Source: Candidatus Acidiferrales bacterium (lineage in GTDB: Bacteria; Acidobacteriota; Terriglobia; Acidiferrales; UBA7541). Taken from it: 64,000 nt of DNA. Below are positions 7,782 to 30,095 of this stretch, in pieces (within the stretch, counting starts at the first letter, position 1; every line of letters starts with the position of its first letter). Made by a program: the position numbers and the translations under genes. The notes under the pieces are model-generated. The model was not told the origin of the DNA and did no database searches. It saw only the letters and a program-made list of their open reading frames with translations. The stretch is taken from contig DATEHV010000008.1 of assembly GCA_035279445.1 (NCBI GenBank), positions 6,525 through 70,524 on the forward strand. The letters run 5' to 3'.

Positions 7782-9284
7782 TCAGGAACCGCGGACGCCC
7801 GGAGCTGCAGGAGTCTCTTCTGTCACGACTTCTCGTTTTGCCGCCGCGATTTTTGCTGCTTCCTTTGCCGCTGCCGAGCGCGAGCCTCGGCCGGAATCGA
7901 GATTGAACTGTCGCATCTTGTAGAGCAGCGCTTTGTAACTGATTCCCAGCATGTGAGCCGCGTCTTTTCGGCACCAGTTTGTTTTCTCCAGCGCGTCGGC
8001 GATCGCTTCCATTTCCGCTTCGTCCTTCAAGCCGCGCACGAGCGCCTTCAGCCCTTGTTCTTTGGGCGCCGGCGCTTCCTCGCGCGGAGAGACGCGCTGC
8101 TGCTGGCTGGTCATCTCCAGAAGTTCGCGGAAGCTGCCTTCGTCGTCTTCCAGAATTACATAGCGTTTGACGAAGTTCTCGAGTTCGCGCAGGTTGCCGG
8201 GCCACGAGTAGCGCACCGCGGCTTCGAGCAGGCTCTTCGAAGGATCGGGCGCCACCTTCTGGTACTTTTCGCTGTACTTGACCAGAAAGTGCCGAAACAA
8301 GAGCGGGATTTCCGTGGTGCGCTCCCGCAGTGGCGGGATGTGGAGCGAGAGTACGTTCAGCCGGTAATAGAGATCCTCGCGGAAGCGGCCCGTTCGCATC
8401 GCTTCCTTGACGTCCATATTCGTCGCGGCGAGTACGCGAACGTCCACGTTGACTACCGAGCGAGCGCCCAGGCGCGAATACTGGCCATCCTGTAACACGT
8501 GCAGGAGTTTTGCCTGCAGATGCGGGCTCATTTCCGCGATTTCATCCAGGAAGATGGTCCCCTTGTTGGCGAGCTCGAACTTGCCGGGCTTCGCCCGCAC
8601 GGCGCCCGTGAAAGCGCCCTGCTCGAATCCGAACAGCTCCGATTCCAGGAGTTCGCCCGGCAGTGCGGCGCAATTCACTTTGATGAAAGCCTGCTGGTTG
8701 CGTTTGGAACGGAGATGAACCATGCGCGCAACCACTTCCTTTCCGACGCCGCTTTCGCCGCTGATGAAAATGGGAACGTCGACCGGCGCAATCTGCAGGA
8801 TTTGCTGGCGAATCTTGAGCATCTGCGGGCTCGCGGCCAGAAACGAGATGTCCTCGGTCAGAGCCTCGCAATATTCCCGCAGCGCCTGATTTTCCGAGCG
8901 CAGTTGCTGCTTCTGCTGGCACTTCAGAAACGCGGCATCCAGCTCCGGCTTCTCAAACGGTTTGGTCAGGTAATCGAGCGCGCCCAGCCGAATCGCTTCG
9001 ACCACGGTGGTCACTTCGTTGGCGCACGAAAGCATGATCACGTTGAGCGAACGGTCCACCTGCATCAGCTGCCGCAGCGTCTCGAGCCCGTCCAGTTCGG
9101 GCATCAGCACGTCGAGAATGATGAAATCGGGCCGCTCTCCTTCGCCGACGCGCTGCAAAGCTTCCTTGCCGCTCGGCAGCGTTTCGACCTCGAATCCGTC
9201 CACTTCGAGCAACGTCCGGAGGTATTTCCGGATACTCGGCTCGTCGTCCACCACCATGATCTTCTCTTTAGCTTTCGTCGCCAT
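7782..9284 (-). CDS. NtrC-family sigma-54-dependent response regulator (REC + AAA+ + Fis HTH)
   Basis: 500 aa. Receiver domain (IMVVDDEPS...DFIILDVLMPELDG...LTKPF), AAA+ domain (GESGVGKE, GAFTGA, WPGNLRELEN) and a C-terminal HTH, followed by an Ala/Lys-rich tail. Confidence 0.9.
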   Translation of the reverse strand: MATKAKEKIMVVDDEPSIRKYLRTLLEVDGFEVETLPSGKEALQRVGEGERPDFIILDVLMPELDGLETLRQLMQVDRSLNVIMLSCANEVTTVVEAIRLGALDYLTKPFEKPELDAAFLKCQQKQQLRSENQALREYCEALTEDISFLAASPQMLKIRQQILQIAPVDVPIFISGESGVGKEVVARMVHLRSKRNQQAFIKVNCAALPGELLESELFGFEQGAFTGAVRAKPGKFELANKGTIFLDEIAEMSPHLQAKLLHVLQDGQYSRLGARSVVNVDVRVLAATNMDVKEAMRTGRFREDLYYRLNVLSLHIPPLRERTTEIPLLFRHFLVKYSEKYQKVAPDPSKSLLEAAVRYSWPGNLRELENFVKRYVILEDDEGSFRELLEMTSQQQRVSPREEAPAPKEQGLKALVRGLKDEAEMEAIADALEKTNWCRKDAAHMLGISYKALLYKMRQFNLDSGRGSRSAAAKEAAKIAAAKREVVTEETPAAPGVRGS

Positions 9285-9320
9285 CGTTTTTCCTGCGAAG
9301 CGAGATCTTCCCGCCTCGAT

Positions 9321-10538
9321 TTATTCGACGTAGATGGGCAGCAAGAAAGAGAATGAACTTCCGCGGCCCATTTCGCTGTCCACCCACACTTTGCCGCGAT
9401 GCGCCTGGATCAATCGTTTCGTAATCGCCAGCCCGAGACCCATGCCCGAAGACGAAGGATCCACCCGTACGAACTCCTCGAAAATCTCCTGGTGAAATTC
9501 CGCCGCGATCCCGGTGCCGGTATCGGTCACGGAAACCAGAACGCTGTTCGGACGTTCGCGCGCGCCGCGGCGCCGTTCCTGCGAAGGTGCCCCTTCAGCC
9601 AGCCGCCTCTCCCAGAAGTGCGGCTCGGCCACCAGCGTGACGCGTCCGCCCGCCGGTGTGTGCTTCAGCGCGTTATCGAGCAGGTTCACCATGCACTGCT
9701 GCACTTTCTGGTAATCGAACCGGAACAGCGGAAGATCCGGATTCACCTGAATCTCAAGATGCACGCCAGCGCGCTGGAATGCGTCATGCCAGCGCCCGGC
9801 CACGTCGTTCACACAGTCCCGCAGATCGTTTTCGTGCAACTGCAGCACCAGCTTGCCGCTCTCGAGCGCCGAATAGTTCAGGAACATGGAAACGAGCCGT
9901 ACCAGCCGGTCGCAGCTTTCCTTCGACTCCTGCAAGATATCCCTCTGCCGCTCGCTCACCTTTCCCAGCGATCCCGTAAGCAGGAGTTCGTAATACCCCT
10001 TCATTACCGCCAGAGGAGTTTTCAATTCGTGCGCCGCGGACGCCAGAAACACCGTCTTCTGACGGTTCGCTTCCTGCAGTCGCAAATAGGCGGCCAGGAG
10101 ATTGCGGTACGTCGTTTCTCGTTCCTGCATCAGCTCCTGAACGGTCTGGCGCATCGCAGCCTCGTCGCCGATCGGTCCGGCGGGAGTTGGTTCGAAAAAG
10201 ACGGCGAGCCAGTCCGGCTCCGGAAGCCAGCGAATTCGTGCGCGCGACTTGCCTTCGGCGGATTCGACCGAAAGATTGACCTCTTGCTCTCCCGCTTCCA
10301 ATTGGCTCAAGACTTCCCTGCGGTCGGCGCGGAGGAGGTCCTTGAACAGGTTGAGATCGCGCCGCGAGCTCAATCCGCGGGTGTTCAGAGCGTCCTGCGC
10401 GTGCAGATTCGTGAAGAGTACTTGTCCGCCGCGATCGGCCACGAGAAGCGGGCGGTCCACAGCGTCCAGCAGACTGGCGACGAGTTGAAAACTCGCCGGG
10501 CCGACCGTCTGCTTTTCCACAGTCACGCTTTTGGGCAA
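9321..10538 (-). CDS. Cytoplasmic sensor histidine kinase (PAS-like + HisKA + HATPase_c)
   Basis: 405 aa. H-box SAAHELKTPLAV, N-box LLDNALKHTP, G-boxes DTGTGI and GMGLGLAI. No obvious TM segments. 36 bp upstream of the NtrC-type RR on the same strand. Confidence 0.9.
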   Translation of the reverse strand: MPKSVTVEKQTVGPASFQLVASLLDAVDRPLLVADRGGQVLFTNLHAQDALNTRGLSSRRDLNLFKDLLRADRREVLSQLEAGEQEVNLSVESAEGKSRARIRWLPEPDWLAVFFEPTPAGPIGDEAAMRQTVQELMQERETTYRNLLAAYLRLQEANRQKTVFLASAAHELKTPLAVMKGYYELLLTGSLGKVSERQRDILQESKESCDRLVRLVSMFLNYSALESGKLVLQLHENDLRDCVNDVAGRWHDAFQRAGVHLEIQVNPDLPLFRFDYQKVQQCMVNLLDNALKHTPAGGRVTLVAEPHFWERRLAEGAPSQERRRGARERPNSVLVSVTDTGTGIAAEFHQEIFEEFVRVDPSSSGMGLGLAITKRLIQAHRGKVWVDSEMGRGSSFSFLLPIYVE

Positions 10539-10852
10539 CGCACTCTCCTGGCGGTTGAAACCCCAACAAACACACCACGCTCACACTTACCCTGGCGCTC
10601 GAGGGGAAACCTGTTGAGGAAGGGTATGCTCGCAAAGGGGCCAAAAAGAGTCAATGGTAAATGCGTCCTACATTTGCACAATCGCGGCAATCGTTTGCCG
10701 CTGCTTTTGTATATTCCCCTTCGAAGTGCTCCCGACCCCGCAACTCGGAACCCGCCATCGTATTGATAATGCAAGTGTTAAATAAAGTGCACGGTGGCGC
10801 AAGGACTTGCATTCAAATTGCGACTCAAAAGGGTACTACTACTTGGGTACCA

Positions 10853-11215
10853 ATGACCGTCAGAGAAAACGCCGTACATCAGAGGGTTGGCGTGCCGCAG
10901 CTGAGCGATGAGCGTCGCCGCTTTCAGCGTATCCATTTGCAGGTGCCGCTCTTCATTCGCGGTAGGGATGCGCAAGGCGATCAATTCATGGAGCTCGCGA
11001 AGACTTTGAACATTAGCGCTGTAGGGGCTTTTATAACGAGTCCGCGACCGCTGGCAGTCAACGGGTACGTCACGTTGACGATTCCCGCGCCGTCGATAAC
11101 CTCGTCCGGACTTGTGCCCGCGGGAATGGCGCCGATTCAGGCGCGAGTGAAACGCCAACAGGAAGCCGGCGATGTGCATTTGATCGGCGTTGAGTTCCTA
11201 AAACCCATCGGCTAA
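10853..11215 (+). CDS. Stand-alone PilZ domain protein
   Basis: RRRFQR (RxxxR) and NISAVGA (NxSxxG) motifs. ATG at 10853 chosen, because the track ORF start at 10661 lies in a non-coding-looking AT-richer leader. Confidence 0.72.
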   Translation: MTVRENAVHQRVGVPQLSDERRRFQRIHLQVPLFIRGRDAQGDQFMELAKTLNISAVGAFITSPRPLAVNGYVTLTIPAPSITSSGLVPAGMAPIQARVKRQQEAGDVHLIGVEFLKPIG

Positions 11216-11467
11216 CGATTTTCCGTTAATTTGAATCCCATCGGCAGTGCGTTGAGTCCAAAGTGGAATCACTTTTCACTTTCCGGCAAGCGCGCGGGTC
11301 CTCGCGCCGGCATTGTATACTGAGCGTTTATGCGTCTTGCTGGCAGCAACTTACGGCGGCCCTCGCCCCATTTCTTGTCTGGGATTGGACTGCCCCGTGC
11401 TGTAGACTAGCAGCCCCCGCATGCCTCCCTGAGTTCAGGGAGGGCTAGACTTACTCGGAACCCGTTC

Positions 11468-12655
11468 ATGCCCCAGCCCGGCGAAGCTATGCAACCGCAG
11501 CCCTCTGCGGAGGATTCGTTCTTGGACTTGCTGGTAGAGACCCTCGAGGGTCTCGACGAATCCGCTCGCGGGCAATTCCTGCGCCAGTTTCTCCGCACTG
11601 TGGCGCAGACGGATCTCACCGAGCTGCAAAGCAATGAATACTGGGCGCGCATTATCGAGCGGCGGCGCGAGCTCGCCGACAGCCTCGGAAAAAGAGTTTC
11701 GCTCAAAACGGCGATCGTCGATGTCCTTTCTTCAACGAATTTTCTTCGCGTTCCCATTCTCATCGAATATGACGAATTCAAGAAGCTGCAGATCAACGCG
11801 GCTACCGACGCGCTCACGGGTCTCTACAATCGCCGCCTCTTCGACGAGTATTGCGACAAGGAGCTGAACCGCGCGAAGCGCTATGGCCAGCAACTCGCCG
11901 TCGTCATCCTCGACCTGCACAAGCTCAAGGAAGTGAACGATCGGTACGGCCATCTGCAGGGCGACCAGGTTTTGCAAATTGCCGCCGCCACTCTGCGGAA
12001 AACCCTTCGCGCTTCGGATTTCGCTTTTCGCATCGGCGGTGACGAGTTTGCGGTGCTCTTGCCGCAGACCGATCCCGAGCAGGCCGTCACGCTTTGCCGC
12101 CGCGTCCGCTCTCAATACGAAGCGGAGCTCCGTCCGCTCAAACTCGATATCGGAGTGACTCTCGATTTCGGCGTGGCCGTGCATCCTCAGGACGGCGACC
12201 AGAAAAGCGATCTACTGGGCCTGGCGGACAAGAAACTCTACGAGCTGAAGCATGCGGGCCGCGCGTCGTCTCGCGTGATTCCGCTCGAACCGCCGCTGCG
12301 CGAGGCGCCCCCTCCTCTGCCTTCACTCCGAATCCCCACGGCCGCCCCTTCCGGGTCAGGCGCCGCTGCTGCCCCCGCCCTGCGCAGCGAGCAGCGGAAG
12401 TGGGAGCGCGTCTCGCTCGCCGGGACCAAGGCTCACGCCATTCTCACGGATGGCACCCAGAAAACCGCACGAGTGATCGACCTCAGTTATGGCGGTGTTG
12501 CCCTGCAATTTGAAAAAGGCGAAGACCTGCCCGCTCAGTTCAATGCCGTGCTGCACGTGCCCATTCTGCCTCCGGTGCGCGTGGTTCTTCGCAAAGCCTA
12601 TACGATGCGGACCGACGCTGGCCGCACGCGCGTCGGCTGCTCTTTCGTTTCGTAG
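11468..12655 (+). CDS. Diguanylate cyclase (GGDEF with I-site) fused to a C-terminal PilZ domain
   Basis: GLYNRRLF..., an RASD I-site 5 residues before the RIGGDEF active site, and a C-terminal PilZ with RKWER and DLSYGGV motifs separated by a Pro/Ala-rich linker. Confidence 0.9.
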   Translation: MPQPGEAMQPQPSAEDSFLDLLVETLEGLDESARGQFLRQFLRTVAQTDLTELQSNEYWARIIERRRELADSLGKRVSLKTAIVDVLSSTNFLRVPILIEYDEFKKLQINAATDALTGLYNRRLFDEYCDKELNRAKRYGQQLAVVILDLHKLKEVNDRYGHLQGDQVLQIAAATLRKTLRASDFAFRIGGDEFAVLLPQTDPEQAVTLCRRVRSQYEAELRPLKLDIGVTLDFGVAVHPQDGDQKSDLLGLADKKLYELKHAGRASSRVIPLEPPLREAPPPLPSLRIPTAAPSGSGAAAAPALRSEQRKWERVSLAGTKAHAILTDGTQKTARVIDLSYGGVALQFEKGEDLPAQFNAVLHVPILPPVRVVLRKAYTMRTDAGRTRVGCSFVS

Positions 12656-12774: not shown

Positions 12775-13665
12775 ATGGCTCTCACATCTTTACCCACTCG
12801 TCTTCCCGTCCAAGGTGTCGGGCTGGAGGTATGGTTGGAACGCGTCCTCGAAAGAGCCGAGCGCGTCCAGCCGGCCTGGGACGCCGCCGACGTTCACGCC
12901 TTGCGCGTGGCGATCCGGCGCTGCCGGACGATGGCCGACGCGCTGAGTGAAGTGAATCCTGGCCCCGGCTGGCGCAAGCTGAAGAAATCCACCCGCGAGC
13001 TTTTTCGCGCTCTGGGCAAGCTCCGCGATACCCAGATGGAACGGGCCCTCGTGAAACGCCTCGGCCCCCCGGGCGACCCCCTGCGAAAACACATGCTGCG
13101 CCTGCTTTCCCGAGAGCAACAAAGATACCGGGAAAGCGCGGAGCAGGCGCTGATCCGGTTCGACCGCAAGGAGTGGAAAAAACTGTCGCGCAGGCTGGCA
13201 TCCAAGGCGCGATTCTTCCCTCTCGGCAGCGTCGTGTTTCAACGCCTGGCCCTTGCGAGATTGAACCGGGCGGCGGATTTGTATCGGAAGGCGCGGAAGC
13301 AGCGGAGCAGCGTCGCTTGGCACCGGCTGCGCGTCGGCCTGAAGCGCTTTCGCTACGTCGCCGAGAATTTCATGCCGCAGCGGTATGAGGCCTGGGCCGA
13401 CGACTTGAAGCGAATGCAGGACCTGTTGGGCGAAGTCCACGACCTCGACGTGCTGCGCGCCGACCTCCGCCGGCGCGTCACGGACGTGGACGCGGCGATC
13501 GTCGCGCAGTGGTTCGAAAGAATTGACCGAGAGCGAAAAGCACGCCTTCGGGAGTTCACCGAAAAATGCGCCGGCCCGGAATCCCCCTGGCTGACCTGGC
13601 GAGCCGGATTTCCTTGGGGCCCCGCCCTGGCGGCATCGTCGCTCGACGAGCGCCGAACCGCTTAG
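12775..13665 (+). CDS. CHAD domain protein (polyphosphate-granule associated family)
   Basis: 296 aa. Repeated basic helices VHALRVAIRRCR..., HRLRVGLKRFRYVAE, LGEVHDLDVL are typical of CHAD. Confidence 0.82.
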   Translation: MALTSLPTRLPVQGVGLEVWLERVLERAERVQPAWDAADVHALRVAIRRCRTMADALSEVNPGPGWRKLKKSTRELFRALGKLRDTQMERALVKRLGPPGDPLRKHMLRLLSREQQRYRESAEQALIRFDRKEWKKLSRRLASKARFFPLGSVVFQRLALARLNRAADLYRKARKQRSSVAWHRLRVGLKRFRYVAENFMPQRYEAWADDLKRMQDLLGEVHDLDVLRADLRRRVTDVDAAIVAQWFERIDRERKARLREFTEKCAGPESPWLTWRAGFPWGPALAASSLDERRTA

Positions 13666-13674
13666 ACGGACCTC

Positions 13675-14169
13675 CTAGCCCGCCAGTTCCCGCAGAACCT
13701 TCGGAGTGAGAATCCAGCGCAATTCCCACCGGCCTTGTGCCGGAGCGTGCTCGAAACAAGCCGCGCCTGCCTTCTTCAGCTCCGTGAACGCGCCGCGCGC
13801 CCCCGCCAGTTGCGCGATCATCAGGTCGAGATGGGGCGCGTGGCCGAAGCATGCGATCTCATTCGCCTTCAGGCGCGCGATTTCCTTCAGGAGTTCGGCG
13901 GGATTTGCCGCCGGCTTGAGCGCCTCGCTCAAGCGGATTTTCTCCGGCGAAAGTCCCAGCGCCTCCGCAAATATTTCCGCCGTCTGCGCCGCGCGGACGT
14001 AAGGGCTGCTAATCAGCGCGTCCGGTTTCGCTCCCAGCGCGCGCAGGCCGAGCGCGGCGGATCGCGTCTTCTGCACCCCCCGCGCCGTCAGCGGCCTCTC
14101 CGCTTCGGACGGGCATTTCGGGTCGCTGCGCTCCATGGCGATGCCGTGGCGAATCAGATAGAGGATCAT
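13675..14169 (-). CDS. sixA: Phosphohistidine phosphatase SixA
   Basis: 164 aa. N-terminal LYLIRHG (RHG catalytic motif) and SSPYVRAAQTAE match the histidine phosphatase superfamily, SixA size class. Confidence 0.85.
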   Translation of the reverse strand: MILYLIRHGIAMERSDPKCPSEAERPLTARGVQKTRSAALGLRALGAKPDALISSPYVRAAQTAEIFAEALGLSPEKIRLSEALKPAANPAELLKEIARLKANEIACFGHAPHLDLMIAQLAGARGAFTELKKAGAACFEHAPAQGRWELRWILTPKVLRELAG

Positions 14170-14172
14170 CGG

Positions 14173-15732
14173 CTACGCTACCTTTGTTCCGCGCTGCACC
14201 CGCCGGAATTCGGGCTTGAGGTGAAACTCCTTCTGGAACAGATCGGACTTGCGCTCGAGTCCCGCGAGATCGAGACGCGTGCCTTCAGCCGCGCGAATCT
14301 GGAAAATTGCCCGGCGCCCTGCAATTTGCACGTCCACGTCCGAGACTCGCTGGGCGTGCTCCGATTCCAGTTTCTCGGCGATGCGCAGCAGTGACGTCAG
14401 CAAACGAGCCTGCCGCCGCTGCGCGCCGTCGAGCGATGCGTACGATGCGTGCTCGACTTGCGGCTCCGACTTGCAATTGTGATAGCGCACGAGCGCCGCC
14501 ACCATTTCCCGCCGCCAACCCCGTAATCCCGGCACCTCGCCATTGCGCACCAGATACTCGCCGTGGCGGTGGTGCGATTTGCGGTGCACGAACTGCCCCA
14601 CGTCGTGCAGCAGCGCTGCGATCTCGAGTATCAGCCGCGCCTCCAGCCCCATTTCATGCAGCGGGCGCAATTGATCGAAGAGCGAGAGTGCGAGCCGCGC
14701 GACCTGCTCCGCATGCGGCGCGTTGTAGTCGTGCCGCCGCGCAAACCATCGCGCTCCGGCCAGCAGCTCCTCGGCGCGGCCCTTTTCTTCCTCCGACGCC
14801 GCTTCGGCCGAATACTGCTCGGCCACCAGGTCCAGCAGCAATCCCTCCCGCACGCCGACTCCCGGCGCGAGTAGCGAACGCAGGCTGAGCCACTCCGCGA
14901 CTGTCGTGATGATGATTGCCGCGATTCCCATCACTTCGGCGCGGTCCCGTCGCACGCGAAACGCCCTGACGCGCCCGGCCACGTCCAGGCCGAGCAGCCG
15001 CCAGGTCTGGTCGCGCAACAGCCGAACGTTGATCGTCGGCGTTCTCCCTGCCAGCGGGCCGGGAGCCAGCCGCACCAGCGCCTCGGCGTTGCCTCCGCAG
15101 GCTACGGCAATCGCGCGGGAAAGTTTCGGCGGCTCGGGAAGCGCGCTGCGCAGCAGCGACAATACGTGGTGCCGCAGCCGCCGCGCCGTGTCCTCGTCAA
15201 TCGCCCCTTCGATCGAATAGGTTTCCATCAGCCGGATGGTGCCGAGCGGCAGCGCGATGCGATGCTGCACGATGCCGCGCTCAAAAAAGTTCAGCTCCAG
15301 GCTCCCGCCGCCCAGATCGAAAATGAGCCTCGGGTGGATGCGTCCGCCGAGCGCCCACCGCACCGCCGAGCAGACCAGCCGCGCCTCCTCCTCGCTGCTG
15401 ATGACCTCGAGTTCGATTCCCGTTTTTCTTCGAATGCGCTCCATCAGGCGCCGGCAATTGCGCGCTTCCCGTGCCGCCGCCGTAGCCACCGCGCGATACG
15501 CCGTCACGTGCCACTGGTCCATGCGGTTGCGAAAGTGGCGGAAGGCGCGGGCCGCGCGGTCAATCGTATCGTCGTCGAGCAGGTGGCGCGTAAACGCGTG
15601 GTGGCCCAGCCGCACCGCGGCGCGCTCGCTTTCCAGGATCTGAATGTGCTGCGGCGAGGTGGCGCGCGCGATCACCAGGCGGATCGCGTTCGATCCGGCG
15701 TCGATCGCGGTCAGTTGAACCGGAGCGGCCAC
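14173..15732 (-). CDS. ppx: Exopolyphosphatase / guanosine pentaphosphate phosphohydrolase (Ppx/GppA) with C-terminal HD domain
   Basis: 519 aa. ASKHA N-terminal motifs (IDAGSNAIRLVIA, DLGGGSLEL) and a C-terminal LLHDVGQFV HD region. Its stop is 3 nt from the sixA start. Confidence 0.9.
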   Translation of the reverse strand: MAAPVQLTAIDAGSNAIRLVIARATSPQHIQILESERAAVRLGHHAFTRHLLDDDTIDRAARAFRHFRNRMDQWHVTAYRAVATAAAREARNCRRLMERIRRKTGIELEVISSEEEARLVCSAVRWALGGRIHPRLIFDLGGGSLELNFFERGIVQHRIALPLGTIRLMETYSIEGAIDEDTARRLRHHVLSLLRSALPEPPKLSRAIAVACGGNAEALVRLAPGPLAGRTPTINVRLLRDQTWRLLGLDVAGRVRAFRVRRDRAEVMGIAAIIITTVAEWLSLRSLLAPGVGVREGLLLDLVAEQYSAEAASEEEKGRAEELLAGARWFARRHDYNAPHAEQVARLALSLFDQLRPLHEMGLEARLILEIAALLHDVGQFVHRKSHHRHGEYLVRNGEVPGLRGWRREMVAALVRYHNCKSEPQVEHASYASLDGAQRRQARLLTSLLRIAEKLESEHAQRVSDVDVQIAGRRAIFQIRAAEGTRLDLAGLERKSDLFQKEFHLKPEFRRVQRGTKVA

Positions 15733-15735
15733 TCT

Positions 15736-16563
15736 TTAGCGCCAGAGATGAGCGAGCGCGTGCGAAGGCTTGTAGGTCGTGTTCTGGATGGCGAGATGCG
15801 TCGCGATCCGCCTGCGCAACATGCGATTCACTTCCGAGATGCTTCCTTCCCCATCCAGCTCCAGGAAGCCGTGCCGCTTCGAAAGATACTCGAACTCCCG
15901 CTTGATCATCGATTGGTAGCGGATGAACGATTGGAAGAGATCGTTTGAAAGCGACATGTCTCGTCCCGATTCCCAGTAGCTGATCGTCTGCGATTTCTTG
16001 AATTCGCGGTCAAACGCGATCTCCGGCCGCACGTTGAGCCAGAACGTCAGGTCCGGCCGCAGCGCGATTTCGTAAATCCCGTGCAGGTAGTCCCGGCCGA
16101 TTCCGCGCACCGCCGCCCGCGCGATCAGCGTAAAGATATAGCGGTCGGCGAGCACGATCAATCCCGATCGCAGCGCGGGCAGGATGCGCCGCTCCAGCTG
16201 GTCGAAAAAGTCCGTGCCGTACATCAGCGCAAGCGTCGTGCGCGTCACCGCGTTTTCCGCGAGCAATCCGTCGATGTCTTCGCCCACCAGAAACGACCGG
16301 CGCAATCCCATCGTTTCCACGGCGAAGCCTTCGCCCTCGAGCCACTCCGTCAGCAGCGAAATCTGCGTCGAGCGCCCTGAGCCGTCCGTGCCCTCCACCA
16401 CGATCAGGCTTCCGCTCAAATCCTCCGTGCGGACGCCCGGCATCGGCATTCCATAGAAGCGCGACGCGCCGTCGGCGGAGCCGTTCTTGCCCTTCTTCGC
16501 GTGCTTCGAGGGCCGCCCGTTTCCGGGCACCGTGGGAGCCGAATTGGCGCCGGGGCGTGTCAT
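15736..16563 (-). CDS. Thymidylate-kinase-like P-loop protein with Lys-to-Arg P-loop (paralog B)
   Basis: VVEGTDGSGRSTQ P-loop (Arg in place of the canonical Lys) and an LADRYIF motif, with a basic low-complexity N-tail. ATG at 16563 overlaps the stop of the upstream paralog (ATGA). The longer 470-aa track ORF is an out-of-context extension. Confidence 0.72.
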   Translation of the reverse strand: MTRPGANSAPTVPGNGRPSKHAKKGKNGSADGASRFYGMPMPGVRTEDLSGSLIVVEGTDGSGRSTQISLLTEWLEGEGFAVETMGLRRSFLVGEDIDGLLAENAVTRTTLALMYGTDFFDQLERRILPALRSGLIVLADRYIFTLIARAAVRGIGRDYLHGIYEIALRPDLTFWLNVRPEIAFDREFKKSQTISYWESGRDMSLSNDLFQSFIRYQSMIKREFEYLSKRHGFLELDGEGSISEVNRMLRRRIATHLAIQNTTYKPSHALAHLWR

Positions 16564-17297
16564 TTCTTTTTCTTCGGCGCGAACTGCTTCAGTTCGATTC
16601 GCTCTCCGAGGAGCTGGCGCATCAGCTTCTGCAGCTTGTTCACGCGGACGGTTCCGTCCATCAGCACGAAATTGTCCGTTTCGATCATCTGGTCGTAATT
16701 GGCCAGGATCCGCTCCTGGAAGATGCGGAAGCTCTCGGCGCGGTCGAGCGAGATACCGAGATCCATCCCGGCCTCGTAATACTTCAGCTTGGGACGCCCG
16801 GCGACGATTCGGTTCACCGCCACGTCGAGCGGCGCGCGAAAGTAAAAGGTGATGTCGGGAATCGGCGCGAAGCTGTAGAGGTTTCGCAGCCAGTGGGGAG
16901 CGCAGCCGCGCGCCGCGTCGCGCGCGAACGCGGTGTAAATGTAGCGGTCGGCGAGCACCAGATAGCCGCCGTGCAGCAGCGGCAGGATTTGCCGCTCGCA
17001 GCGGTCCGCGAAATCGGCGGCGTGCAGCATCGAGAATGTCGTCGCCGTCAGAAGCCGCCTCTGCTTTCCCCGCCGTGTCGCAGACTTCACCAGAGGCGAC
17101 GAATTCCATTCGGTGAAATGAATCCGGTAGCCGCCAATCTCGAGCCACCGCTTCAGCAGGTAGAGCTGCGTGCTTTTCCCCGAGCCGTCAATCCCCTCGA
17201 CCACCACCAGCGCCCCCGGATACGCGCGCTTCGCGACGGGCGCCTTTTCCGGGACCGGCTGTGCGGCGATAGGAGTTTCGGGAGCGACGGTAGCCAT
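16560..17297 (-). CDS. Thymidylate-kinase-like P-loop protein (paralog A)
   Basis: VVEGIDGSGKSTQ canonical P-loop and an LADRYIYT (DRY) motif. The lid region is unlike classical Tmk. The ATG at 17297 (MATVAPE...) is preferred over the track start. Confidence 0.72.
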   Translation of the reverse strand: MATVAPETPIAAQPVPEKAPVAKRAYPGALVVVEGIDGSGKSTQLYLLKRWLEIGGYRIHFTEWNSSPLVKSATRRGKQRRLLTATTFSMLHAADFADRCERQILPLLHGGYLVLADRYIYTAFARDAARGCAPHWLRNLYSFAPIPDITFYFRAPLDVAVNRIVAGRPKLKYYEAGMDLGISLDRAESFRIFQERILANYDQMIETDNFVLMDGTVRVNKLQKLMRQLLGERIELKQFAPKKKK

Positions 17298-20144: not shown

Positions 20145-20960
20145 ATGGCGACCATCTTCAGCAAGGAACTCGCGGTCTCACCCGGCGAAAAGGTGAACCT
20201 CGCGAAATATGATCCGGAGCAGACGCTCGGCTGGGAAAAAGACCGCAAGATGAAGGCGAGTCTCGAAAAAGCGATCGAGCGCATTGACCAGCAGCAGTAT
20301 CTGCTCTATGCCGAGCACAAACATGCGCTGCTCGTCGTCCTTCAGGGACTCGACGCGTCCGGCAAGGACGGCACCATCCGTCATGTCATGGCGGGCGTCA
20401 ATCCCCAGGGCTGCACTGTCGTTTCCTTCAAGAAGCCTTCTGTGGAAGAGGCGTCGCACGACTTCCTGTGGCGGATCCACAAGGCCGTTCCGGAATACGG
20501 CAACATCGGAATCTTCAACCGATCCCTTTACGAAGACGTTCTGGTCGTGCGAGTCCACAATCTCGTGCCCAAGGAGGTCTGGTCGCGGCGATACGATCAG
20601 ATCAATCGCTTTGAAGAGCTGCTGCACGACAACCGCGTGAAAATCGTGAAATTCTTTCTCCACATCAGCAAGGACGAGCAGCGAAAGCGCTTTCAGCAGC
20701 GCATCGGCGATCCCGACCGGAGGTGGAAAATCTCCGAGGCGGATTTCGACGAGAGAAAATTCTGGGACGACTACACGGAGGCCTACGAAGCGGCCCTTAC
20801 AAAATGCAACACGCGCCACGCGCCGTGGTACGTCATTCCCGCGAATAAAAAATGGTTCCGCAATCTCGCCGTTTCTCACACAATCGCCGAGACGCTGGAG
20901 GACATGCGCATGAAATTCCCGCTGCCGTCGGTGGACGTGAAAAAGATCCGGTGGAAATGA
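20145..20960 (+). CDS. ppk2: Polyphosphate kinase 2 (PPK2) family protein
   Basis: 271 aa. LLVVLQGLDASGKDGTI Walker-A-like motif, FLWRIHKAVPEYGNIGIFNRSLYEDV, and WYVIPANKKW are all typical of single-domain PPK2. Confidence 0.9.
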   Translation: MATIFSKELAVSPGEKVNLAKYDPEQTLGWEKDRKMKASLEKAIERIDQQQYLLYAEHKHALLVVLQGLDASGKDGTIRHVMAGVNPQGCTVVSFKKPSVEEASHDFLWRIHKAVPEYGNIGIFNRSLYEDVLVVRVHNLVPKEVWSRRYDQINRFEELLHDNRVKIVKFFLHISKDEQRKRFQQRIGDPDRRWKISEADFDERKFWDDYTEAYEAALTKCNTRHAPWYVIPANKKWFRNLAVSHTIAETLEDMRMKFPLPSVDVKKIRWK

Positions 20961-27124: not shown

Positions 27125-27218
27125 CCGCCTTGTCGGGGTTGCTTGGTCAGCAACCTTGGTACATCGGTACCATTCCTCCCACCAATGGTTCTAGTACAAT
27201 CGATTGGAGAGCAAGGAG

Positions 27219-30095
27219 ATGCAGCCTCTCCAAGGTGAGTTGACCGTGGCCAGCGAGTCCATAGTCCCCAATGCACGGGCCTTCGTGCGGAGCCTCAACG
27301 TTCTCCTTAAGTACTCACGGCTCTATGGTTTAGACCACCTTCGCTCTGCCGGGCAGTTCGAAGTCAGCTGGAATGAGCTGGAGGAGGCCGTCCGCGCGGC
27401 CGGGGATGCCGGGCTGCTGCTGGGAGCCTCCGGTTCGCAGCTGCTCCTGGACGGCGTCCCGCTCGAGTCCACCACCGCCGAACGCAGCTTCGCCGACCTG
27501 CTCAACAATGCCGGCGTCGCCAGCATCGCATTTCTGCCGACAGTCGGCCGCGGAGACTTCGCCAATCTGGTGAAGGCGTTCATGGAGACGGGCCCGAAGG
27601 CTGCACCACTGGGCGAACGGCTGGAGAAATACTTCGGGACGGGAAACACCGCTGGAATTCGCGTCAACGAAATCCGCTTTGTCGCTGAAGACGCGGCCTT
27701 CTCCGAGGCGCGCGTCGCCGCGCAATTGACGGTGAAGACCCTGGGAGCCGATGCCGAACGCGTGCAGGATTGGTTCCGCAGTCCCGAGAAAATGATTCAG
27801 CTGATCGCCGCGGCGGAGGGCGCGCACGGAGGGCCGGGGGGACCCGGCACGGGGCCTGGCGGACTGGGACCTGGAGCGGGACCCGGAGCGGGACCGGGAC
27901 CCGGACAGGGAGGCGGAACAGGCACGGGTTCGGGGTCTGGTGGCGGTGGGGGAGGCAGCGGCACGGGTTCAGGGTCGGGTGGTGGATTCGCCGGCGCCGG
28001 AACTGGCGGCGGTGGCGTCGCAGGAGTCGGAATCGGAGCAGGCGGTTCGGGGTCAGCAGTAGGATTCCTGAGCGGCATGCAGGGTGGGGGCTCCGCCCAA
28101 GTTCCGCCGATGGGTGAGGCGGAAATGCAGAGTTTGTTGCGGCTGCTTGCGCAGTTTGGCGAAGCCACCCACGCCAAGTCCGTGCAAGTGACCGACCAGC
28201 TGGCCTGGACACAGAAGCTCGCCGCGCTGCCTCAAAATGCGCAGTGGACTCTGCGGCAGGCGCTGGCAACCGTGGCGGCGAAGACTCCCTCGGCAAAAGT
28301 GGACGAGACCATGCTGCTGCGGCTGGCCGAAGACCTGGCAATCCGCTTCGCGCTCGATCGCTTCCAGCGCGGCGAAGTGCGCGTCAACGCCGTGCGGCAG
28401 ATGCTCGACAAGATGGGCCACGAGCTGGAAACGCTGCGAAAGCTGCTGAAGGCACGCGAGGACAAGATGGCCACCGCGGGACTCGCGGTGGAATCTCACG
28501 CGGATGTGCTCGACCGCCAGTTCTGGGCCGCGGTGCCGGAATCGGGCAAGCGAGCGGTGCTCACCTCGGCGGAGGCGTGGTGCATCCCGCCGCGGAACGT
28601 GCAGCAATACGTCGAAGAGCTGCTCGGGCGCGGCGAAGCGGATGTCGCCGGAGACGTGCTGCTGAAATATGCGTCGTGCGTGCGAAACAAGGATGCGGAA
28701 GCGCGAAAGAAGGCCGCCATCGGGCTGGGCCAGCTCGCGGAGTTGTACAGCAAAGGAGCGAGCCAGCGATTGCAGGACGCACTCACCCAGATCGGGCAGC
28801 AACTGGCCGCCGAAAAGGACGCGGAGCTACAGACTTTGTTGAGCGCGGCTTTCGTGCGATTGAGCCAGGAAGCGGCTTCGCGGCGCTACTACCGCGCGAT
28901 GCAGCAAGCGCTCGATTCGATCACCGACCTCGAGGAACTCCGCCCGGCGTGGGCGCAAAGCCTGCGTCCACGGCTGGGAGTTGAAAACCGAATTTCTGAA
29001 TTCATCGAAGAGGCGCTGACGGCCGAGGCGATGCCGGAAGGCCTGGTGGGCTTGCTGATGCGCGTTCCGCAAGGGGCGGCGGAGCAACTCGCGGTGCGGC
29101 TGGCGCGTTCGGGGCGGCGCAGCGAGCGGGAGGCCGTGGTCCAGCTGGCAAAAGAGGTGGGAAGCGCCTGCGCCAGGCATTTGAAGGAAATCCTCAAGTC
29201 GGAGGCGCCTGCCAAAGCGGCGACGGTCGTGGGGCTGCTGAGCCGCGTGGACGTGCAGGCCGTGGAGGATCTGCTGCCCGTGCGACTGCGGAACGGCGGG
29301 CGCGGCTTCCACGATGCGGCCGTGCGCCAGCTCTCGATCGCGGGAGCGCCGGAACGCGGCCAGCTGCTCGCGGACTCGATCGAAATGCTGGACCCGATGG
29401 TCTTGCCGCTGGCGCTCGATGAAATCGGAATGTGCGCGGACCAGAAGACCGCGACGATGCTTCTCCGATTGGCGGAAGGAGAGATCCTGCCGGACGGCGC
29501 CGAGTACCTGCGCGTCAAGGCGATCGAAGCGCTGGGTCGGATGCGCGCATTGGCCGCCGCGGGACATCTGCGGCGTTTTGTGGAAGCGCGAAAGGCATTC
29601 GGCTGGGCCTATCCGGAGGAGATGCGCATGGCGGCGGCGCAGGCTTTGATGAAGCTCGATCCGGAATGGATGGAGGCGTTTCTGTCCCACTCGGGCCTGG
29701 ATCAGAGAGTGATGGCGCTCGCTCCGCTGGACCCGATACCCGACCGCGACGTCGTGCGGCATCGGCGGTATCGCAGAATTCGGCTGCCGCGGAATGTGCC
29801 CGCCGTGATTACGTCGGCGCGCGGAAAGTATTCATCGGCGATCAGCGTACTGAGTCTCGAGGGCGGGCTGTTGAGCGGCGACATCCAACTCGCCGTGGGA
29901 ACGGAAGCGACGTTGAAGATTCCTGCGGGGCTTCGCTCGATCAACATGCAGGCCGTGGTGCGATTCGTTCGATCACACCAGGCGGGCTTCGAAATGGTGG
30001 GTATGGGGCTCGACGACCGCACAAAGCTTCGCCGGCTGCTCGTATCGCTGGGCAGTCCCGACCCCACGACCAGTCAACCTCAACCAAGCGAATAA
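27219..30095 (+). CDS. Large HEAT-like repeat protein with internal Gly-rich disordered region and C-terminal PilZ-like domain
   Basis: ~958 aa. Gly-rich tract GPGGPGTGPGGLGPGAGPGAG...GSGSGGGG at ~27819-28091. HEAT/PBS-lyase-like repeats (LRVKAIEALGRMRALAAAGHL). C-terminal RRYRR ... LSLEGG PilZ-type motifs. ATG at 27219 has a GGAGA 8 nt upstream; TTG at 27204 is also possible. Confidence 0.8.
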   Translation: MQPLQGELTVASESIVPNARAFVRSLNVLLKYSRLYGLDHLRSAGQFEVSWNELEEAVRAAGDAGLLLGASGSQLLLDGVPLESTTAERSFADLLNNAGVASIAFLPTVGRGDFANLVKAFMETGPKAAPLGERLEKYFGTGNTAGIRVNEIRFVAEDAAFSEARVAAQLTVKTLGADAERVQDWFRSPEKMIQLIAAAEGAHGGPGGPGTGPGGLGPGAGPGAGPGPGQGGGTGTGSGSGGGGGGSGTGSGSGGGFAGAGTGGGGVAGVGIGAGGSGSAVGFLSGMQGGGSAQVPPMGEAEMQSLLRLLAQFGEATHAKSVQVTDQLAWTQKLAALPQNAQWTLRQALATVAAKTPSAKVDETMLLRLAEDLAIRFALDRFQRGEVRVNAVRQMLDKMGHELETLRKLLKAREDKMATAGLAVESHADVLDRQFWAAVPESGKRAVLTSAEAWCIPPRNVQQYVEELLGRGEADVAGDVLLKYASCVRNKDAEARKKAAIGLGQLAELYSKGASQRLQDALTQIGQQLAAEKDAELQTLLSAAFVRLSQEAASRRYYRAMQQALDSITDLEELRPAWAQSLRPRLGVENRISEFIEEALTAEAMPEGLVGLLMRVPQGAAEQLAVRLARSGRRSEREAVVQLAKEVGSACARHLKEILKSEAPAKAATVVGLLSRVDVQAVEDLLPVRLRNGGRGFHDAAVRQLSIAGAPERGQLLADSIEMLDPMVLPLALDEIGMCADQKTATMLLRLAEGEILPDGAEYLRVKAIEALGRMRALAAAGHLRRFVEARKAFGWAYPEEMRMAAAQALMKLDPEWMEAFLSHSGLDQRVMALAPLDPIPDRDVVRHRRYRRIRLPRNVPAVITSARGKYSSAISVLSLEGGLLSGDIQLAVGTEATLKIPAGLRSINMQAVVRFVRSHQAGFEMVGMGLDDRTKLRRLLVSLGSPDPTTSQPQPSE

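Follow-up and report, generated by a model that had tools for sequence, protein, structure and literature searches.

A candidate two-subunit polyphosphate kinase of family 3 encoded in an acidobacterial operon

Two overlapping genes, here called A and B, lie in a 64,000-nucleotide (64 kb) stretch of DNA from a Candidatus Acidiferrales bacterium (contig DATEHV010000008.1; the whole stretch is referred to as the window) and encode paralogous proteins resembling thymidylate (dTMP) kinase (Tmk). By sequence comparison, A most likely encodes the catalytic and B the regulatory subunit of a bacterial polyphosphate kinase of family 3 (PPK3), with a probability of about 0.85. The system is of an already published kind, of which the pair in the window is an uncharacterised bacterial member. 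A heteromeric polyphosphate kinase, SaPPK3, has been described from Sulfolobus acidocaldarius (Hofmann et al., bioRxiv 10.1101/2024.08.28.610084, 2024; J Biol Chem 2026, PMC12995831). The first-pass annotation of this DNA had not recognised the pair as a described system; this does not hold, since PPK3 had been the subject of a bioRxiv preprint in 2024 and of a journal article in 2026, and the preprint names Acidobacteriota among the bacteria with PPK3 homologs.

The overlapping gene pair

The features of the pair are as follows.
16560..17297, minus strand: gene A, predicted catalytic subunit (cPPK3), 245 amino acids (aa), with Walker A motif GIDGSGKST, DRY motif and the c-specific motif EWNSS
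15736..16563, minus strand: gene B, predicted regulatory subunit (rPPK3), 275 aa, with Walker A motif GTDGSGRST and the DRY motif retained
16560..16563, minus strand: stop/start overlap ATGA of A and B, by direct reading of the sequence
16468..16563, minus strand: residues 1-32 of B, an N-terminal tail with the basic patch KHAKKGKNG at 16480-16506
16432..16458, minus strand: r-specific N-terminal motif FYGMPMPGV, residues 36-44 of B, before strand beta-1

The stop codon of A (TGA, 16562-16560) and the start codon of B (ATG, 16563-16561) have the four bases ATGA in common, which suggests translational coupling. Checked codon by codon, A reads VVEGIDGSGKSTQ, with Lys41 encoded by aaa at 17177-17175, and carries LADRYI with Arg118 encoded by cgc at 16946-16944. 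B reads VVEGTDGSGRSTQ, with Arg64 encoded by cgc at 16374-16372, and also carries LADRYI, in which D140-R141-Y142 is kept and Arg141 is encoded by cgc at 16143-16141. The patch KHAKKGKNG corresponds to B residues 20-28 and is kept among close homologs of B. The two proteins are 34% identical across 211 residues with no gaps and are thus paralogs. The first-pass annotation is borne out on each of these points, having described two paralogous Tmk-like genes that overlap by ATGA, with GSGKST in A, GSGRST in B, LADRYI in both and a KHAKKGKNG tail in B.

The start of A at MATVAPE gives a protein of 245 aa, and its open reading frame (ORF) could begin from 17363. Gene callers matched the starts of the 245-aa A and the 275-aa B on two identical metagenome contigs. 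A 470-aa ORF in the frame of B (15736-17148, minus strand, GTG start, spanning A) was rejected as an artefact due to the high G+C content; homologs and gene callers favour the 275-aa protein, which starts at the ATGA overlap.

Proposed assignment to polyphosphate kinase family 3

SaPPK3 is encoded in S. acidocaldarius by the operon sixA-ppx-saci_2019-saci_2020-CHAD, its two subunit genes being co-transcribed with ppx and sixA (PMC12995831), and the locus, re-read here, has the operon layout as published. Saci_2019 is the catalytic subunit cPPK3, which forms polyphosphate (polyP) from ATP and works faster in the reverse direction, in which ADP and polyP yield ATP; GTP is not used as phosphoryl donor in the synthesis direction (PMC12995831). 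Saci_2020 is the regulatory subunit rPPK3, which is inactive alone and, when mixed 1:1 with cPPK3, activates it about ten-fold; the two form a complex with the behaviour of an alpha2-beta2 tetramer (PMC12995831). No dTDP was formed from dTMP by Saci_2019 or Saci_2020 in nuclear magnetic resonance (NMR) assays, and neither subunit has kept the residues that bind dTMP, such as the EP motif (PMC12995831). Residues of a basic cleft are conserved in c and not in r (PMC12995831).

The pair in the window and SaPPK3 are alike in that both consist of adjacent, overlapping Tmk-fold paralogs with c upstream of r, in that ppx and sixA stand in the operon with a CHAD gene adjoining, and in that the dTMP-site motifs are gone from both subunits. 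They differ in gene order, which is c-r-ppx-sixA in the window and sixA-ppx-c-r-CHAD in Sulfolobus. B keeps DRY and has Arg at the position of the Walker lysine, whereas Saci_2020 keeps the Lys, has lost the P-loop Asp and has DGY. An N-terminal extension of about 50 residues in B, comprising the basic tail and the FYG motif, is a further difference from Saci_2020. The ppx product of the window has 519 aa with an extra HD domain, compared with 411 aa in Sulfolobus, and a PPK2 gene lies nearby, unlike at the SaPPK3 locus. The host is a mesophilic soil acidobacterium, whereas that of SaPPK3 is a thermoacidophilic archaeon.

A is 48% identical to Saci_2019 and 25% identical to Saci_2020 (70 bits), while B is 30% identical to Saci_2020 (96.7 bits). 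The best solved-structure match of both A and B is STK_15430 of Sulfurisphaera tokodaii (PDB 2plr/5h70), which A matches at 200.9 bits (phmmer E 1.9e-58) and B at E 1.5e-37. STK_15430 was deposited as a dTMP kinase (PDB 2plr, 4nzy, 4rzx, 5h70) and is now read as the cPPK3 of S. tokodaii (PMC12995831). It is of the c type, and the Walker lysine and the c-specific basic residues set it apart from B.

Profiles were built from 82 c-type and 79 r-type sequences, and the r genes of S. acidocaldarius and S. tokodaii were translated for comparison. For the Sulfolobales r-subunits, the r-profile gives 143-158 bits and the c-profile 91; for the Sulfolobales c-subunits, the c-profile gives about 270 bits and the r-profile about 200. 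A phylogeny of the pair, proposed by the first-pass annotation, was obtained as a bootstrapped neighbour-joining tree of 59 sequences rooted on two partial canonical Tmk outgroups. A falls in a c clade supported in 97/100 replicates, B groups with the Sulfolobales r-subunits in an r clade (70/100), and PPK3 is separated from canonical Tmk in 87/100.

A also carries every residue that is invariant across 81 c-type sequences. The c-invariant residues W64, N65, K78, R99, R168 and K172 are all present in A and replaced in B, and the polyP site is plausibly made up of them. For B, an AlphaFold2 model (predicted local distance difference test score (pLDDT) 88.4; predicted template modelling score (pTM) 0.83) has the Tmk fold, with residues 1-32 predicted to be disordered (pLDDT < 50); its best PDB matches are the STK_15430 entries (TM-score 0.89-0.93), ahead of canonical Tmks. 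Taken by synteny, profile scores and tree, B is most likely rPPK3.

That one or both genes are ordinary dTMP kinases with an incidental ppx linkage is very improbable. Both proteins score above the Pfam gathering score of PF02223, with modest matches of 68 bits for A and 67 bits for B, many homologs of A and B are labelled dTMP kinase (among thousands of metagenomic matches, nearly all), and the S. tokodaii homolog was deposited as one. Both fall below the NCBI equivalog cut-off for dTMP kinase (TIGR00041, 83.25 bits), with A at 80.5 and B at 78.4. In alignment with the Tmks of T. thermophilus and S. aureus, EWNSS (A) and GLRRS (B) stand in place of the dTMP-binding motif REPGG, and FARD (A) and IARA (B) in place of AYQG. 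Neither protein resembles a dTMP kinase, given the scores below the TIGR00041 cut-off and the replaced dTMP-binding motifs. Canonical Tmk structures (T. thermophilus, A. aeolicus, S. aureus) have the fold, P-loop, DRY and lid in common with A and B and match them only at E about 1e-11 to 1e-13. Canonical Tmk is a homodimer, whereas A and B are read as a heteromeric pair within a polyP operon. Further points against dTMP kinase are the lack of dTDP formation by Saci_2019 and Saci_2020 in the NMR assays, the earlier dTMP-kinase assay on the S. tokodaii protein, which measured ADP only, and the conservation of the pairing and its polyP neighbourhood across phyla.

A link to polyP by similarity to PPK2, which the first-pass annotation had considered, does not hold. 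A and B gave no match to PF03976 even at E <= 10, compared with 242 bits for the true PPK2 of the window, and the family lies inside the dTMP-kinase superfamily; of the two profile scorings proposed for the pair, that with PF02223 thus gave matches and that with PF03976 none. The nucleotide and polyP sites are swapped between PPK2 and PPK3 (PMC12995831). An analogy drawn in the same paper is the two-domain class II PPK2 (P. aeruginosa PA3455), in which an active P-loop module is combined with an inactive paralogous module for oligomerisation (PMC12995831); it belongs to another family, and its modules are fused, whereas A and B are separate genes.

Under the PPK3 assignment, A would bind ATP or ADP at the normal site of Walker A, DRY and lid, as Tmk does, while a basic cleft in place of the dTMP pocket would hold the end of the polyP chain, and the terminal phosphate would be moved reversibly between ATP and polyP. 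B, a paralog in which most of the c-specific basic residues have been lost along with the Walker-A lysine, is probably non-catalytic and would most likely assemble with A as alpha2-beta2 and stimulate it, as Saci_2020 does Saci_2019. The ATGA overlap would keep the production of A and B in step. The exopolyphosphatase and the SixA phosphatase of the operon, with CHAD and PPK2 nearby, may form a polyP turnover module in which the operon couples PPK3 to hydrolysis by PPX. Polyphosphate kinase activity, lack of dTMP kinase activity, activation by r and the tetramer have been demonstrated for the Sulfolobus homologs only, and are presumed for A and B by analogy. The first-pass annotation had proposed an obligate heteromer of an active and a degenerate subunit with a polyP-related substrate, and this reading is supported by homology, the same having been shown experimentally for the homologous Saci_2019 and Saci_2020; its part concerning the inactivity of B is presumed from the sequence of B.

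Several points weigh against the PPK3 assignment. Support for the r clade is only 70/100 in a simple neighbour-joining tree, and the biochemistry of PPK3 is that of the archaeal enzyme. A PPK2 gene lies nearby, whereas most PPK3 genomes are reported to be without PPK1 and PPK2 (PMC12995831). B keeps the DRX arginine, the lid arginine and the rest of the P-loop, all strongly conserved. PPK3-bearing genomes encode a canonical dTMP kinase elsewhere (PMC12995831), and a third Tmk homolog was not found among the six-frame ORFs of the 64 kb window.

A probable arginine-type regulatory subunit

Conservation was surveyed in one genome per GTDB species with a c-type alignment as query, taking the best 80 loci, the 80th of which is still 59% identical to A. 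Arg stands at the Walker-A position in all 78 of the scored r-subunits of these loci and is written with all six Arg codons among the 76 species with a readable codon, which argues that it has been kept by selection and not by shared descent of one codon. The 120 closest homologs of B (79-100% identical) all have G-x-D-G-S-G-R-S-T. A sequencing error as the source of the Arg P-loop, a concern raised by the first-pass annotation, is ruled out by these 120 homologs, the 78 r-subunits and the codon diversity; the Arg P-loop of B is genuine.

The remainder of the nucleotide site is also conserved in the r-subunits. The DRX arginine, R149 and the lid arginine R186 are invariant (78/78), and R153 is 99% conserved. 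The motifs of the Sulfolobales r-subunits have decayed by contrast, with P-loops IMSSGKTT and IEGSGRTA and with DGY in both species. The inactivity of rPPK3 has been attributed to loss of the DRX arginine (PMC12995831). Contrary to that statement, the DRX arginine is present in B and in the surveyed r-subunits, and its loss is read here, from sequence, as a feature of the Sulfolobales branch and not of the PPK3 family as a whole. The Arg-type r-subunit contradicts the published generalisation on DRX, which is a modest and probably new point. With the DRX arginine, lid arginine and rest of the P-loop intact, the presumed inactivity of B is less secure than that of Saci_2020, and it is the least secure step of the account.

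A second r-specific feature is the motif [RK]FYGxG[LI]PG, which lies about a dozen residues before the first strand. The strict pattern is present in 47 of the 78 r-subunits and a relaxed form in most others, spanning bacterial and Nitrososphaerota loci (L003-L082), with Gly38 being 92% conserved. The motif was not found in c-subunits or in Sulfolobales r-subunits. The region is ordered in the model of B (block pLDDT 77-92), and an interface element is a possibility.

These observations bear on the reading of the pair as a PPK3 in which B is itself functional, either as an allosteric nucleotide-binding site sensing ATP and ADP or as a weakly active second site of catalysis, the Arg of Walker A then being a selected, functional residue. 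This reading is considered unlikely. The invariant Arg at position 64 in all six codons and the 99-100% conservation of the DRY arginine, R149, R153 and R186 speak for it, as do two proteins (P0320 and P0326) that have no Walker lysine in either domain and yet keep a GRST domain. In mutants with Lys changed to Arg in Walker A, RecA K72R for example, ATP binding is retained and hydrolysis is poor. Against the reading, phosphoryl transfer is normally crippled by such an Arg, and the c-specific basic residues proposed to hold polyP are missing from B. The r-subunits evolve faster than the c-subunits, with a mean pairwise identity of 48% compared with 57%, and Saci_2020, the sole r-subunit tested, is inactive. 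Judged from sequence, it is somewhat doubtful that B is a nucleotide-binding regulatory site rather than a bare scaffold. As a tentative proposal, most natural r-subunits of PPK3 may belong to an Arg-type class, not represented by the Sulfolobus protein, with the FYGxGLPG motif and a full nucleotide site in which a strictly selected Arg replaces the Walker lysine; its members would bind ATP or ADP without turnover and set the direction or rate of c according to energy charge. Such a class would extend over soil Acidobacteriota, Verrucomicrobiota, Chloroflexota and Nitrospirota and over ammonia-oxidising archaea. The Arg-type regulatory subunit poses a concrete and testable question on the control of the enzyme.

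The proteins P0320 (454 aa) and P0326 (471 aa) have the N-terminal P-loops EGLDRAGTD and EGLDRSGTG, with neither Lys nor Arg at the Walker position, and a C-terminal domain of the Arg type (EGIDHAGRST, ADRY), so that a Walker lysine is present in neither domain. If these proteins are active, the Arg-type domain must perform the chemistry.

Operon, distribution and neighbouring genes

The operon has the order A-B-ppx-sixA and is tightly packed on the minus strand, with A first. The other genes of the operon and its polyP-related neighbours are as follows.
14173..15732, minus strand: ppx, exopolyphosphatase of the Ppx/GppA family with HD domain III, 519 aa (PF02541, PF21447, PF01966)
13675..14169, minus strand: sixA-like phosphohistidine phosphatase, 164 aa (PF00300), the last gene of the operon
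12775..13665, plus strand: CHAD-domain protein, 296 aa (PF05235, 92 bits), convergent with sixA
20145..20960, plus strand: one-domain PPK2, 271 aa (PF03976, 242 bits; TIGR03709, 392 bits, above cut-off)

The ppx gene starts 3 nt beyond the stop of B, which confirms the ppx linkage noted in the first-pass annotation, and sixA starts 3 nt beyond the stop of ppx. The SixA-like protein scores 69.9 bits on TIGR00249, slightly under the cut-off of 74.5. The CHAD gene is placed identically in close relatives (L003-L008). The PPK2 gene, encoded on the other strand and 2.8 kb upstream, is a neighbourhood association outside the operon. It is also found upstream of the cPPK3 gene on the opposite strand in Acidoferrales relatives (L004-L009), being directly adjacent in L005-L008. 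This co-location of two polyP kinase families contrasts with the published rarity of PPK1 and PPK2 in PPK3 genomes. PPK1 was not found among the ten long ORFs of the window scanned against Pfam.

The r gene directly follows the c gene on the same strand in 77 of the 80 surveyed loci; of the three exceptions, two end at the edge of a contig. The flank encodes PPX in 59 loci, SixA in 38, CHAD in 25 and PPK2 in 10; these counts were seeded with the proteins of the window itself, so that divergent CHAD proteins are under-counted. The presence of PPX in the flank of 59/80 loci agrees with the co-conservation of the pair and ppx among relatives expected by the first-pass annotation. The closest of the best 80 loci are from Acidoferrales and are 85-90% identical. 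The loci come from Acidobacteriota (Acidoferrales, other Terriglobia and Pyrinomonadaceae), many Verrucomicrobiota and many Nitrososphaerota, as well as Chloroflexota, Nitrospirota, Thermodesulfobacteriota, Sumerlaeota, Goldiibacteriota and Gemmatimonadota. A wider figure of 448 relatives is not taken as a count of PPK3, since canonical Tmks can also be matched by one of the two patterns behind it. An exhaustive profile search gave 144 clusters (50% identity) with E < 1e-30 to B.

Homologous c-r pairs in operons with PPX, SixA, CHAD and phosphate-transport genes have been reported from Nitrososphaeraceae and from "a few" bacteria, PPK3 being presented as mainly archaeal (PMC12995831). The c-r pair is found here in genomes of at least 80 species, drawn from about ten phyla; this is evidence, and a second modest new point, that PPK3 is much commoner among bacteria of the soil than "a few". 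Polyphosphate may therefore be made or tapped by abundant soil bacteria through an enzyme hidden under its current annotation.

Natural fusions provide indirect support for the joint function of the genes. The clusters of the profile search include proteins in which cPPK3 is fused to rPPK3 and others in which c and r are fused in addition to Ppx/GppA domain III (HD); the fusions of these two kinds are P0261, P0280 and P0291 (650-696 aa) and P0244 (460 aa). They are independent evidence for a joint action of both subunits, also with the phosphatase. The P-loops of the fused r-domains (GAHHAGVTH, GVPGSGTSL, GSDYSGHYQ) are far more decayed than those of the free-standing Arg type, and the r-domain of P0244 is not of the Arg type.

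The fusions also bear on a further reading, in which the kinase pair would act on a different phosphorylated nucleotide, for instance in (p)ppGpp metabolism. The ppx product scores below the cut-offs of TIGR03706 (204.9 bits), NF008260 and NF008108, which are PPX and GppA models, and this would leave room for such a substrate. The CHAD and PPK2 neighbours point to polyP instead, c-r fusions to PPX domain III exist, and the homologous enzyme makes and uses polyP and does not take GTP as phosphoryl donor in synthesis. A nucleotide substrate of this kind is therefore highly improbable, and the PPK3 assignment is retained.

Two other arrangements of the kinase were observed. In locus L073, on a 5.9 kb contig of a Thermoproteota metagenome-assembled genome, the gene next after cPPK3 is a CHAD gene on the other strand and r is missing; this is the sole such locus with enough flank among the 80. 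The proteins P0368, P0385 and P0389 combine a c-type PPK3 domain with a DUF2252/APH-like domain in one chain and have no r-domain, P0368 being also fused to a major facilitator superfamily (MFS) transporter; these proteins may represent a different use of the same kinase module.

A scan of the operon for promoters and terminators gave no signal above chance. A role in anti-phage defence was considered and rejected, PADLOC having given only a weak match to the candidate family PDC-M51B. A cluster for c-di-GMP and sigma-54 signalling adjoins the polyP operon at 7782-12655, and a further PilZ-domain protein is encoded in the window.
7782-9284: sigma-54 response regulator
9321-10538: histidine kinase
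10661-11215: PilZ protein
11468-12655: GGDEF protein with a weak, sub-threshold PilZ match
27204-30095: 963-aa protein with a C-terminal PilZ domain

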